DNA from: Trichodelitschia bisporula
Lineage: Eukaryota
DNA: 64,000 bases
NCBI GenBank assembly: GCA_010356995.1
Contig: ML996701.1
Span: 62,001 to 126,000, forward strand
Reading direction: 5' to 3'
A program made the translations under genes and the position numbers. This document shows, in pieces, positions 34,531-39,670 of this stretch; position 1 is the stretch's first letter; each line of letters opens with the position of its first letter. The notes under the pieces were generated by a model. That model ran no database searches, was not told where the DNA came from, and worked only from the letters and a program-made list of their open reading frames with translations.

Positions 34531-36980
34531 CTTGAATGCTTGCAGTGCGCTTGTCGGCAGTGCGAAAGAGGGAGTTTGCGCGATTGGTGGGGAGTTTGGG
34601 GACAACGAAAAGGGGTGGAGATGAGGAGAGGGGTTGCGAGATTTGGAGTTGGAAGTTTGCGAGAATGAGGAGTGGAGGAGCAGCGGCGATGCTGTTGCTG
34701 GGATTCTCGCGCAGCCGACGGGGACCGAGGTTGCCAAGCTGGAGTCGTTGAATGGCAGAATTGGGCAGTTGAAGTGGAATTGGTGAAGCTCACGATGGTT
34801 ATGGGCGATCAAACACGCCGACAAACGTGTGTATGGCAGGTGCGACCGGGTGCGTTCGGCCTCGTGCGGAAGCTACCCGTACGTACGTCATGGAGGAAAT
34901 GGCGGGGAAGGCGCGGGGAGGTGACGCCACTGGTTCGCGGGGCACGCGACTTCCTCGTGATCTGGTCTGCGCCGCAGAAACATTGTTGCTGTTCCTGTGA
35001 GGGTTGGGACGGATCGTGAGTTCTTCTTGGGAGGTGAAGTTCGAGGTTTTGGCTCGCCATGGCTGTGATAGCCGGATGTTCCTCCGCTTCGCTGTGGCGC
35101 TAAGGATGCGGGCAGATGTGGCGGTCGCTGCTGCTTATCTCTCGCTTCCGATCGCCAACTCACGCTGACGGGTTCGAGTCCTCAAAGCTTCGAGATGACT
35201 GCAGCTCTGTTCGTGCCGAAGACCTTCCATTGGCCTTATATCGCTCACCCCCTTCACCTTCCCCAGGTTCAACCGCAAGTGGGTTACGGCGCATCATATC
35301 TCTCCGCCGTACATCCGTAGACGGACAACATGCCGCCCCGCCCTATCAAGCATCTTCCCTCCTCGCCAATTCCCAGCGTTACATTCCCAGCGGCACAAGA
35401 GTAGATAAGCTTCACAACACCTCGCTACCTCATACGCAGTCATCCACGCCCATCCAGACCCCGCATCACACCCGCGGGATGTCCTCCGTTGCATTCGTAC
35501 ATCCGTATTACGCCGCCTGTGGGATGTAGCGCGGGGTGCTCCCCTCCCACAAGAAGCACTCGCATGCCCTCCTCGTACCCCGCCATCCATCCCGCAGCGT
35601 GGGCGCAAAACGCAGCCCTCGTGCCCTCTATCCGCGGACGCCACGAACGCGGGGAACAAGCTCCTTTCGCATCTGCATTCTCATTCAACCTTCGCATCGC
35701 AGGCCCTCCGCTGCAGCGTTCGCCCTTTCGTCCTCGCGCCTCCGTTGTCCCTCCGCGGGCGCGGCTTGGCTGACGCAAGCCACAGCCGGTCGGGAAGGGC
35801 GGGGCACGACGCTTGGCCGGACGTGCATGAAAGGCCGGGTTGTTAACGCGATAGGGTAGCGCTAGCACTCGCGGCGCGGCGTGAATCTCCCGGGCTAGCA
35901 TCTTTTACCTGGTGCTTGGGAGCCGAGCCGGGGGGGGGCTATTAGCTAAGGGCGCGGGATGAGTGGGTTGGTCTTTTGGTCCTTGCCCGATGCTCATCTT
36001 CTGCCTTCAGCGCTAGAAGGAGATGATGAACGTCTGAACCCTTCCACGGTTCCCACTGATCAGCCGTGTCGGATGTTCCGATCCTTCTGTGTTTCTTCCT
36101 TCGGGCCGTCTTAGGAACACTGCGTTGGAGTGGCGGAAACTTGGCGCTGCCGGTATCACGAGGGTCTTTGTCCACCCCGCGCATAGCGAGTCGGTCACAA
36201 GTCAAGTCAAGTCAAGTGCGAACGAGGTGTACCGTACCAGGGCCCATCGTCATGATTGGCCCCATCCCTTAGCCCGCATACAGCCTCGCAGGTCCCCAGT
36301 CCAGTAACGGGACTTCATCGCTCCCGGGATCCCAATAGCATGCCTTCCTCAACGGCCCTCGCCAAAAAGAAAAGAAAAGCTACGCTTATCAGCGCCGGCC
36401 AGCACCGCCGCCCACACTCACTCCCTCCCATGCATGTACGGAACGCAAACACGGGCGCCAGAGAGAGAAGAAGCGGGCGCGGGACCATCGCCAAGCAGCA
36501 GCTTTTTGCGCGAGGCGGCGGATGGGATGACGGAGCGCCGGCCGCTACGGCGGTTGTCACCATTTCTCAACTTTTTGCAGGATAAATGTGGGGCTGGGCC
36601 CCCGCCCTAGGCACAGGACAAGAGGTCTGCCGTCCGGGGTCGATTATCATTGTCGGGCTAATTTTTTTCTTCAGCCTCGATTTTAACTTCATCTCCGACC
36701 TAACCTTTAAGGGCCTTAGGCGTAATTGCGAAAAAGAGGTAAAAAGATCGACTACGTGAACGGGTGGGCTGCTGGTGATCTTATCTCCTCGTCTTCCTCC
36801 TCCTCCTTCTCCTCCTCCTCCTCTCTTCATCCAACTTATTCCACTCCCTCGCCGTACATCCTTCGTCGGCGCATTGCAACTCCCACCCCGCGCATACCTT
36901 CATGAACACGCCTGGACGCGCCTAATCACCACCTCATCCCCCTCCGCTCCCCTCAGCCCAAACCCGTCCAACCCGCCATA

Positions 36981-39170
36981 ATGGCCGTGCAAGATCAAAA
37001 GGACCTGCCCGTGCACGTCGACGGGCGCAAGTCCTCCGTCGTCGAAATCCAAGACGAGCAAGGCCACAAGAAAGTCGTGAACCTCGAGAACCTGACCGCG
37101 GCCGACAAGGCTCTGGCCGAGCAGTTTGGTGCGTAGGGAAATGCTGCACGCCGTTGTGCTGTTCTGTCGTGCAAGCTTTGGAAACTGACGTTCGGCGCAG
37201 GCTACAACCCAGTGCGTACCCGAGAGGGCCGCTGCATGCTGGCGGGCGGTTCATGCACGCAGCCGCTGATCTGGTGGATATAGGTCTTCAAGCGCGAATT
37301 TGGATACCTGGCGTGCTTTAGTTTTGCAGTGCGTTCCCCCCTCACTCCCCAACCCCAATTGCGCACCATCTAACACCACCGTAGGGCAAGACATATGCAT
37401 CACTGCGCCGCTCCCCCAACTAACACCCCCCCAGTCTCCATCTCCGGCCTCTTCTCGACAACCGCAACGTCCGTCCCCTCCCCTACCCTCCCCCCAAAAC
37501 CACGCCACTAACACAAACCAGCACTTTCGTCTTCCCTCTCACCTCCGGCGGCGCCTCCGCCGTCGTCTGGTGCTGGTTCATCTCCGGCCTCGGCTGCCTC
37601 TGCATCGCCTTCTCCGTCGCCGAACTCGTCAGCGCGTACCCGACCTGCGGCGGCCTGTACTTCGCCGTCTCGCGCCTCGCGCCCCGCGAGCACGTGCCCT
37701 GGATCTCGTGGATTACAGTATGTACCCCGCGCGCCCATGTAAGGCCTCGCTAATCGTTGTAGGGCTGGCTTAATCTGCTGGGACAAGGTATGCGGCCGAA
37801 GCCTTGTGGGCGGCAGGACGGGCGCTAATGGTGTTAGTTGCGGGGGTTGCGTCGAGCCAGTATGGTGGGGCGCAGTTGCTGCTTGCGGCTGTGTCGATGG
37901 GGTCGGATTTCTCATACGGTGCGTTTTGAGGTCGAAGGTTGCAGTGGGCGTGGTTAAGCTAACGCGCGCAAAGTGCCTACGAATAACCACACCGTTGGCG
38001 TCATGGCGGGGTTGACCATCATAGCCGGCATCCTGAAGTAAGTCACACCCGCTAGCGGTTCGGACGCAACTGACAACGCCCAGCTCGCTGCCCACGAACT
38101 GGATGGAGAAGATGACGCGCACCTATGTCATCTTCCACATCATCGTGCTCCTTTGTGGCTCCATCGCCCTGCTCGCAAAGACGGAGAACAAGCACAGCGC
38201 CCACTATGTGTTCACGAACGTCGAGTCTACCACCGGCTGGACCCCGATGGGCTGGTCCTGGCTCTTCGGCTTCCTGAGCGTCAGCTGGACCATGACGGAC
38301 TACGACGCGACCGCGCATATCGCCGAGGAGATCTCCGAGCCCGAGCTCAAGGCGCCCTGGGCCATCAGCATGGCCATGGTATTCACCTTCGTCGCAGGCT
38401 GGCTGTACAACATCGTCCTCGCCTTCTGCATGGGCAACCCGGAAGAAATCCTCGCGTCGCCCGTCGCCCAGCCCGTCGCCCAGATCTACTACAACTCGCT
38501 CGGCAAGGCGGGCGGCGTCGCGTTCACCGTGTTCGCGTTCCTGATCATCGAGTTCGTGTGCTGGACTGCGCTGCAGGCTACGGCGCGTACGTTCTTTGCG
38601 TTCAGCCGTGACCGTCTGATTCCCATGTCGCATGTGTGGACCAAGATTTCGCCGATCACGGGCACGCCCCTGAATGCTGTCTGGCTGGCGACCGTCCTGT
38701 GCATTCTGATCAACTTGATCGCGCTCGGGAGTTACATTGCCATTTCCGGCGTGTTCAACGTGTGCGCCATCGCGCTGGACTGGAGCTACACCATCCCCAT
38801 CATCTGCAAGCTGATATGGGGCAACTTCAAGCCCGGTCCCTGGAACCTAGGAATCTTTTCCAAGGCCATTAACGCCTGGGCCATTATCGTAAGTACCCGC
38901 TCCCCCCACTCTTCTCATCCTAGTCGCTCACGACAAAAACAGTGGACGGCCTTCGTGTCCATCATCTTCATCCTGCCCACCGTGCGCCCCGTCAAAGCCG
39001 ATAACATGAACTACGCCATCGCCTTCCTGGGGGGCATTTTCATCGCGGCGAGCATATACTGGTATGCGGACGGGCGCCGCTTCTACACGGGGCCGATTGT
39101 CGAGGCGCATGTTATGGATTCGCCGGGGGCGACGTCGGATGTGGATGACAAGAAGGCGGGCGAGGCGTAA
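36981..39170 (+). CDS. APC-superfamily amino acid/GABA/polyamine permease (ACT family, Uga4/Tpo5-like), 11 exons
   Basis: Exons 36981-37128, 37201-37211, 37284-37328, 37385 (1 nt), 37435-37468, 37522-37717, 37763-37787, 37838-37918, 37974-38037, 38084-38888 and 38943-39170. Spliced protein: QFGYNPVFKREFGYLACFSFAVSISGLF, SVAELVSAYPTCGGLY, WITGWLNLLGQ, WTMTDYDATAHIAEE, FAFSRD, NMNYA. Confidence 0.92.
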
Positions 39171-39670
39171 GTGCTCATCCGGGTAAATGGGTGTTGCGTT
39201 TGTAAGTATTGAAGGAATAATTGCATGCCTGATTTCCCACTGCTGGGTGCATTTGACGGTGCGCATTGATGGGGTTTTGTGACCGCACTGATACCTTTCA
39301 TGATGTGTGGCTCTTTGACCAAGGGAAGGGAAGGGAAGAGCGAAAGACCCGCCTTCCATATCTTTTCGATATTTCAGCCCTGGTTCATATATTCCAGCAG
39401 CCGACATCGCTCATATTATATCTCTGAACGACACAACATTCACCACAAGCCCTACCACTCCGAAAAAGCACTTTGGAGCCCTTCCCCAGATTTCTCCGCC
39501 TCATCTATCTGCCCTAGCACCTCCACCGTCTGCGGAATACTGCTCCCAAAATACACCGCGCCACGCGGAGCTTATACCTGTCCCATTTATATTAACTACC
39601 TCACGAACGACAAAATGTCTTCACCATCCCACGTCCATCATCCACCCACCACCACGCTCCTTTGTCAACT

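Follow-up and report, generated by a model that had tools for sequence, protein, structure and literature searches.

Can an exon consist of a single base? This question is raised by a permease gene of Trichodelitschia bisporula (Dothideomycetes, Phaeotrichales), which lies in a stretch of 64,000 nucleotides (nt) of fungal DNA from contig ML996701.1 (positions 62,001 to 126,000 of the forward strand; 54-64% G+C). This whole stretch is called the window in the following, and positions are counted from its first letter. An earlier note, made from the letters alone, had proposed that one G of the gene, at position 37385, is kept between a GT-AG intron and a GC-AG intron. Our analysis leads to the same place: a one-nucleotide exon is very probably the best explanation of the locus, with two complete U2-type introns standing one nucleotide apart and G37385 kept between them. 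The core of the proposal thus found backing in the junction of transcript contigs, in a search of splice paths and in the motif itself, whereas the novelty that had been seen in the rarity of such exons is lessened, since exons of one nucleotide have already been published, from fungi among others.

The local order at 37385 is CTAAC-N9-TAG / G / GCAAGA. The G therefore has a complete intron 3' end upstream and a complete 5' end downstream of it, and the two introns so delimited, here called a (upstream) and b (downstream), are both of workable size. On re-reading of the sequence, every coordinate and splice signal that the earlier note had given for 37284-37468 proved correct (Table 1). The branch-site A lies 11 nt before the intron end in intron a and intron b alike. 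As had been claimed of their sizes, introns a (56 nt) and b (49 nt) fall within the range of the other eight introns of the gene (45-72 nt), while a single interval of 105-106 nt at 37329-37434 would exceed every other intron of the gene. The donor hexamer of intron a, GTGCGT, is also that of introns 1, 2 and 8, and intron b has what defines a GC-AG intron of the U2 type, namely a GCAAGA donor with a G at -1, a CTAAC and an AG acceptor.

Table 1. Positions in the window of the permease gene and of the features around its one-base exon.
Feature	Position	Strand	Description
Permease gene coding region	36981..39170	+	ATG at 36981, stop codon ends at 39170; 11 exons, 10 introns; coding sequence of 1638 nt, 545 amino acids
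Exon 3	37284..37328	+	45 nt; encodes VFKREFGYLACFSFA; ends in TTT AGT TTT GCA (Ala68); contig piece 37284-37326 plus 2 ambiguous letters
Intron a	37329..37384	+	56 nt, phase 0; GTGCGT donor, CTAAC branch site (A at 37373), TAG acceptor
Single-nucleotide exon (putative)	37385	+	G; would be the first base of the Val69 codon (G + TC)
Intron b	37386..37434	+	49 nt, phase 1; GC-type donor GCAAGA, CTAAC branch site (A at 37423), CAG acceptor
Exon 5	37435..37468	+	34 nt; TC + SISGLFSTTAT; starts TC TCC ATC TCC; from transcript contigs and model

Transcripts were available as contigs of two runs, X1 and X2, which come from one sample of one study, carry the label 'RNA?' and were aligned to 36900-39250. 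Because these contigs are spliced, we took them to derive from RNA. One contig of X1 (1946 nt) spans the whole permease gene and skips all ten modelled introns; every joint of the exon model agrees with it, with 0 mismatches. The first seven of these joints are also present in a contig of X2 (624 nt). In the region 37329-37434, exactly 105 nt are missing from both contigs, and the messenger RNA (mRNA) reads TTTGCA-G-TCTCC (TTTGCAGTCTCC) at this place. This is the junction that had been predicted, while two others that had been named as speaking against the proposal (TTTA-TCTCC and GCA-TCTCC) occur in no contig, though a rare isoform may be absent from contigs. Because four letters at the 105-nt joint match both of its flanks, it can be placed at five positions, and the skipped segment would accordingly end in CA..CC, AG..CC, GT..CA, TG..AG or GC..GT, none of which is canonical.

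To explain this mRNA, we considered every GT-AG, GC-AG and AT-AC interval in 37300-37460 as well as every ordered pair of them. No single canonical intron in this exhaustive search yields the observed product. Exactly two canonical paths of two steps do so, and both consist of introns a and b, removed in the one order or the other; a nested path of the stwintron kind was likewise absent from the exhaustive two-step search. In other words, the mRNA keeps one base between its exons that no single canonical intron accounts for. Among the splice-site pairs of fungal annotations, GT-AG makes up 98.715%, GC-AG 1.009%, AT-AC 0.019% and all others together 0.257%, according to a table in a survey by Frey and Pucker (2020, PMC7072748), and by these frequencies a GC-AG intron is uncommon but normal, whereas ends such as GT..CA or TG..AG are exceptional.

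The signals inside the interval are also more than chance would supply. We shuffled the inner letters of the 106-nt interval 200,000 times, with its real ends retained, and scored each shuffle for a composite of branch site, YAG, one nucleotide and donor-like hexamer with at least 40 nt on either side. A loose definition of the composite was satisfied by 51 of the 200,000 shuffles, a strict one by 2 of the 200,000. The only other match to this pattern in the whole window is a loose one, at a micro-exon of 25 nt (37763-37787, in the region 37718-37837) that starts TAG-G-GCTGGC. Transcripts retain all 25 nt of it, so a loose AG-N-GC motif by itself does not make a one-base exon.

The reading frame calls for the G as well. 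If 37328 is joined directly to 37435 and the G left out, the frame shifts and the first stop comes at codon 194; if intron b is retained, a TAA follows at codon 81, and if intron a is retained, a stop follows at codon 83. A donor GTTTTG at 37321, joined to 37435, gives a product that is in frame and three residues shorter. The frameshift, the TAA and this shorter product had all been described before and hold. We ruled out the donor at 37321, which is used in no contig and would break the segment FSFAVSISG. How much this segment matters became apparent from a homologue search with the large exon, which returned 460 proteins at E <=0.001 among 2532 candidates. The top match, P0001 (545 amino acids, 100% identity), is named an amino acid transporter of Trichodelitschia bisporula, and the protein predicted from our splicing, one-base exon included, agrees with it at every one of the 545 residues; the correct protein is therefore already public. 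Among the 120 homologues listed, 116 (P0001 included) have FSFAVSISG, and the same number have a Val in the column of the one-base-exon codon; of the other four, two read FSFAFSISG and two come from gene models that are visibly broken. This near-invariance among the listed homologues indicates that the Val69 codon, split as G/TC, is under strong constraint as judged from protein alignment, and the G is needed for the frame of a conserved protein segment.

On the other hand, several observations weigh against a one-base exon at this place. The mRNA taken by itself is compatible with retention of G37329, G37385 or G37434, and since it cannot tell the three apart, it is the splice signals that point to G37385. 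X1 and X2 are one sample and thus amount to one independent transcript source. Their contigs, which drop rare forms, contain no partly spliced intermediate, the depth in introns a and b being zero. Besides, the bases at the junctions are known from the assembly alone, as spliced contigs leave the introns uncovered. Finally, related loci do not share the arrangement. From a metagenome scan with 246 relatives we compared 80 loci, all of them at most 70% identical in protein; 76 cover the site and four start further downstream. In 75 of the 76 covering loci the Ala and Val codons are adjacent (GCN GTN or similar) with no intron between them, L021 probably being one of these to judge from its coordinates. 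None of the 76 has an intron that follows the G of this Val codon, and none shows the arrangement of two introns. The earlier note had suggested aligning orthologous loci for both the protein segment and the AG-G-GY arrangement; the former turned out to be conserved (116 of the 120 listed homologues), the latter not (0 of 76 covering loci). As far as this sample of loci of at most 70% identity can tell, the arrangement would be lineage-specific.

These loci are themselves informative. Fifty-five of the 76 (42 distinct sequences) have at least 40 nt of extra length elsewhere and are, because of that extra length, intron-bearing genomic DNA rather than transcripts. The remaining one of the 76, the metagenome contig L079, has a 64-nt GTAAGT..CAG intron (2935-2998) in phase 0, exactly between the Ala and Val codons (GCG/GTC), which is the position and the phase of intron a. 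Since L079 has a canonical intron at this place, the site of intron a is a real intron position in the gene family. L079 also has introns where the gene in the window has none, for example after ...CMCIA, and several other orthologous loci are without any intron across the matched length. In P0111, a public protein model from a lichen-fungus assembly, an exon ends exactly at FSFA, and the next residues of the model align only from about residue 155 onwards. This hints, at the level of the protein model, that FSFA might be followed in that species too by a donor-like site and perhaps by a genuine intron.

Could a simpler history account for the locus? Had the assembly lost one G at a junction (the true sequence being GCAG/GTGCGT... 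or ...CCCAG/GTCTCC), the interval would be an ordinary GT-AG intron of 106 nt and its internal signals a coincidence. Splicing of such an intron would produce exactly the transcript junction observed, the same codon boundary carries a single phase-0 intron in L079, and the genomic sequence at the junctions does rest on the assembly, both runs consisting of spliced contigs. Nevertheless, the idea needs an error at exactly this base and, on top of it, the composite that 51 of 200,000 shuffles produced; the contigs match the flanking exons with 0 differences, so the assembly is accurate nearby, and the next-longest intron of the gene has 72 nt, which an intron of 106 nt would exceed by a factor of about 1.5. 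We regard a lost base as highly unlikely. Nor do we give much credit to one intron of 105 nt with non-canonical ends, removed in a single event as either 37329-37433 (GT..CA) or 37330-37434 (TG..AG). It would fit the single 105-nt joint and the lack of a visible intermediate in the contigs, and ends other than GT-AG, GC-AG and AT-AC do occur, in the 0.257% of fungal splice-site pairs mentioned above. However, cleavage would then have to fall one nucleotide beside a perfect GT or beside a perfect AG, nothing would account for the complete acceptor and donor inside the interval, and GT-CA and TG-AG have 0 occurrences each in the main text of that survey (PMC7072748). We consider this explanation very unlikely.

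A third possibility accepts the one-nucleotide exon as real and makes it regulatory in addition. In the on/off switch of the earlier note, which is a sub-case of the reading preferred here, donor a would pair with acceptor b, remove 106 nt, skip the G and thereby switch the permease off. Both of these sites are canonical and the excision is chemically possible, the sole support for a switch being that skipping the G shifts the frame and leads to the stop at codon 194. Yet the productive junction is alone in the contigs of X1 and X2, which represent one sample and one condition, we found no conserved regulatory element, and the arrangement is present in no other locus examined. A regulatory role for the exon is thus unlikely.

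If G37385 is instead a constitutive one-nucleotide exon with which the conserved Val69 codon begins, how might the two introns be removed? At a donor, the U1 particle covers positions -3 to +6. The U1 site at donor b would consequently overlap with the acceptor site of intron a, and the two introns would not be committed simultaneously; because the 3' site of a and the 5' site of b overlap physically, we infer that they are removed consecutively, by intron definition. With regard to the order, the context of donor b is AGG/GCAAGA before and CAG/GCAAGA after removal of intron a. Scored against the donor consensus CAG/GTAAGT, it matches at 5 of 9 positions before and at 7 of 9 after, the latter equalling the best in the gene, whose other donors match at 4-7 of 9. 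The earlier note had seen here a weak GC donor that becomes strong once intron a is gone: the gain is there, but the step from 5/9 to 7/9 does not prove that intron a goes first, because 5/9 is already typical of the donors of this gene. Intron a is also transcribed first, and upstream-first removal would fit co-transcriptional splicing. Taken together, an order of a before b is slightly favoured, with the balance tipping modestly to that side.

How two introns may have come to lie one base apart is a further question. One possibility is that the locus represents a living intermediate of one-nucleotide intron 'sliding' that proceeds without a stwintron: a second intron would have arisen one base from an older phase-0 intron, at the site shared with L079, and both discordant positions would coexist. 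We put this forward tentatively and with considerable doubt. Were it true, loss of either intron would leave an apparent shift by one nucleotide, and as long as both introns persist, expression would require two splicing events at overlapping sites to take place in a fixed order, so that the output of the gene could be sensitive to splicing kinetics. We rejected duplication of one intron into the other, the pair a-b not rising above z 2.5 in alignment against shuffles. Only intron a versus intron 5 reached z = 4.3 in such alignments, a similarity that shared splice signals and C-rich content can explain. No further copy of intron a or b, as an introner-like repeat would show, was found in the 64-kb window, where chance matches were 9-15 nt long (best E 0.036). 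Elsewhere in the gene, intron 2 (37212-37283) occupies a position, between Pro53 and Val54 (GYKP/VFKREF), at which five of the eight orthologous loci checked by breaks between high-scoring segment pairs have an intron as well (L046, L039, L027, L080 and L013); given this sharing, intron 2 appears old and widely shared.

The locus joins a rare kind that has already been published, namely one-nucleotide exons in plant and fungal genes. Its nearest likeness is in the CYP621A P450 genes of Fusarium, for which a one-nucleotide exon in the order AG/G/GT is described in 20 orthologues, with SRA reads across the joint (Nelson and Syed 2026, main text, PMC12940212). Both cases concern filamentous ascomycetes and one G between an AG acceptor and a donor, within a conserved motif and essential for the frame, and the evidence, as given in the main text of that paper, likewise consists of orthologue alignment and transcript reads across the joint. 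In CYP621A, both introns are of the GT-AG type, the G stands in the middle of a Gly codon and it is kept in the 20 orthologues, whereas the permease gene belongs to T. bisporula, a dothideomycete, has a GC-AG intron downstream and a G that opens a Val codon, and we found no orthologue with the same arrangement. In Arabidopsis, the one-nucleotide exon A333 of APC11 was proved by base substitution and reading of the complementary DNA, and its authors argue in the main text for intron definition with sequential, recursive-like removal of both introns (Guo and Liu 2015, PMC4674806). Like the permease exon, that of APC11 is constitutive and required for the frame, and the same mechanism is proposed for both; it differs in that it belongs to a plant gene, is an A, lies between much longer flanking introns (interval of 422 nt) and has its proof by base substitution. 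Besides, a long-read annotation of Coprinopsis cinerea has 13 one-nucleotide exons in 13 genes (main text, PMC12230235), from which it follows that such exons recur in fungi; this fungus is a basidiomycete, and its exons are known here as counts. In searches on introns of Trichodelitschia, judged by title and beginning of the abstract, and on one-base exons, no paper on this permease gene was found.

Two other arrangements of touching introns need to be set apart from the one described here. In a stwintron, an internal intron interrupts a splice signal of an external one, and in the alternatively spliced [D1,2]/[A2,3] type the two internal introns have one G in common, so that no base from between them stays in the mRNA (Fekete et al. 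2017, main text, PMC5587772). The likeness, as far as the main text of that study goes, lies in two short fungal U2 introns that touch, are removed consecutively, have positions one nucleotide apart and depend on each other for their contexts. The permease introns, in contrast, are both complete and do not overlap, and the G between them stays in the mRNA. With both introns complete and no nested canonical path that gives the mRNA, we rejected their identification as a stwintron, and the distinction that the earlier note had drawn, on the ground that stwintrons leave no nucleotide behind, stands. At a ratchet point of recursive splicing, no base at all makes up the 'exon', and the upstream exon serves to regenerate the 5' site. 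The permease gene is similar in that a 3' site adjoins a 5' site and removal takes two steps; it differs in that its 5' site is offset by one base, which remains in the mRNA.

What the gene encodes was assessed by scanning two of its exons singly and from Pfam domains precomputed for P0001, the public protein identical to its product. AA_permease_2 (PF13520; cut-off 27 bits) matches exon 38085-38888 at E 1.4e-34 (120.3 bits) and exon 37523-37717 at E 6.3e-08 (32.4 bits). By this profile match above the curated cut-off, the gene is predicted to encode an amino-acid/polyamine-type permease of the APC superfamily (AA_permease_2); its homologues carry names such as GABA permease, polyamine transporter tpo5 and amino acid transporter in the sources. 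It had previously been labelled an ACT-family permease, of which the permease family is borne out by PF13520 above its cut-off, the ACT subfamily being a matter of that label only.

The gene is unusually intron-dense at its 5' end, where nine of the ten introns lie within the first 1.1 kb (36981-38083) and where there are four exons of at most 34 nt (11, 1, 34 and 25 nt). The micro-exon of 11 nt at 37201-37211 (GCTACAACCCA), which codes for part of GYNP, stands between two 72-nt introns with GTGCGT donors, and the transcript contigs keep its letters between 37129 and 37284. Two introns with unusual signals are spliced in the contigs all the same: intron 8 (37919-37973) has an AAG acceptor, and intron 10 (38889-38942) is without a match to a CTRAY branch site.

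In summary, relative to the published one-nucleotide exons, that of the permease gene, which transcripts support, is new in its gene family (amino-acid permease) and in its fungal class (Dothideomycetes) and differs in the codon position of the base; it is also the first with a downstream GC-AG intron among the described cases compared here by their main texts. An exon of one base is the smallest that the spliceosome can define. Such exons are missed by standard gene finders and RNA-seq aligners and look like a frameshift or a non-canonical intron, which carries a lesson for annotation: where a 'non-canonical' intron is about twice the normal length, it should be tested for an internal AG-N-GY. 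Together with L079, which has the upstream intron only, the locus offers a system for asking how two introns end up one base apart, and whether one-nucleotide intron shifts arise by gain of an intron beside an old one and subsequent loss. The main value of the permease locus thus lies in annotation practice and in a tractable system for the origin of neighbouring introns.

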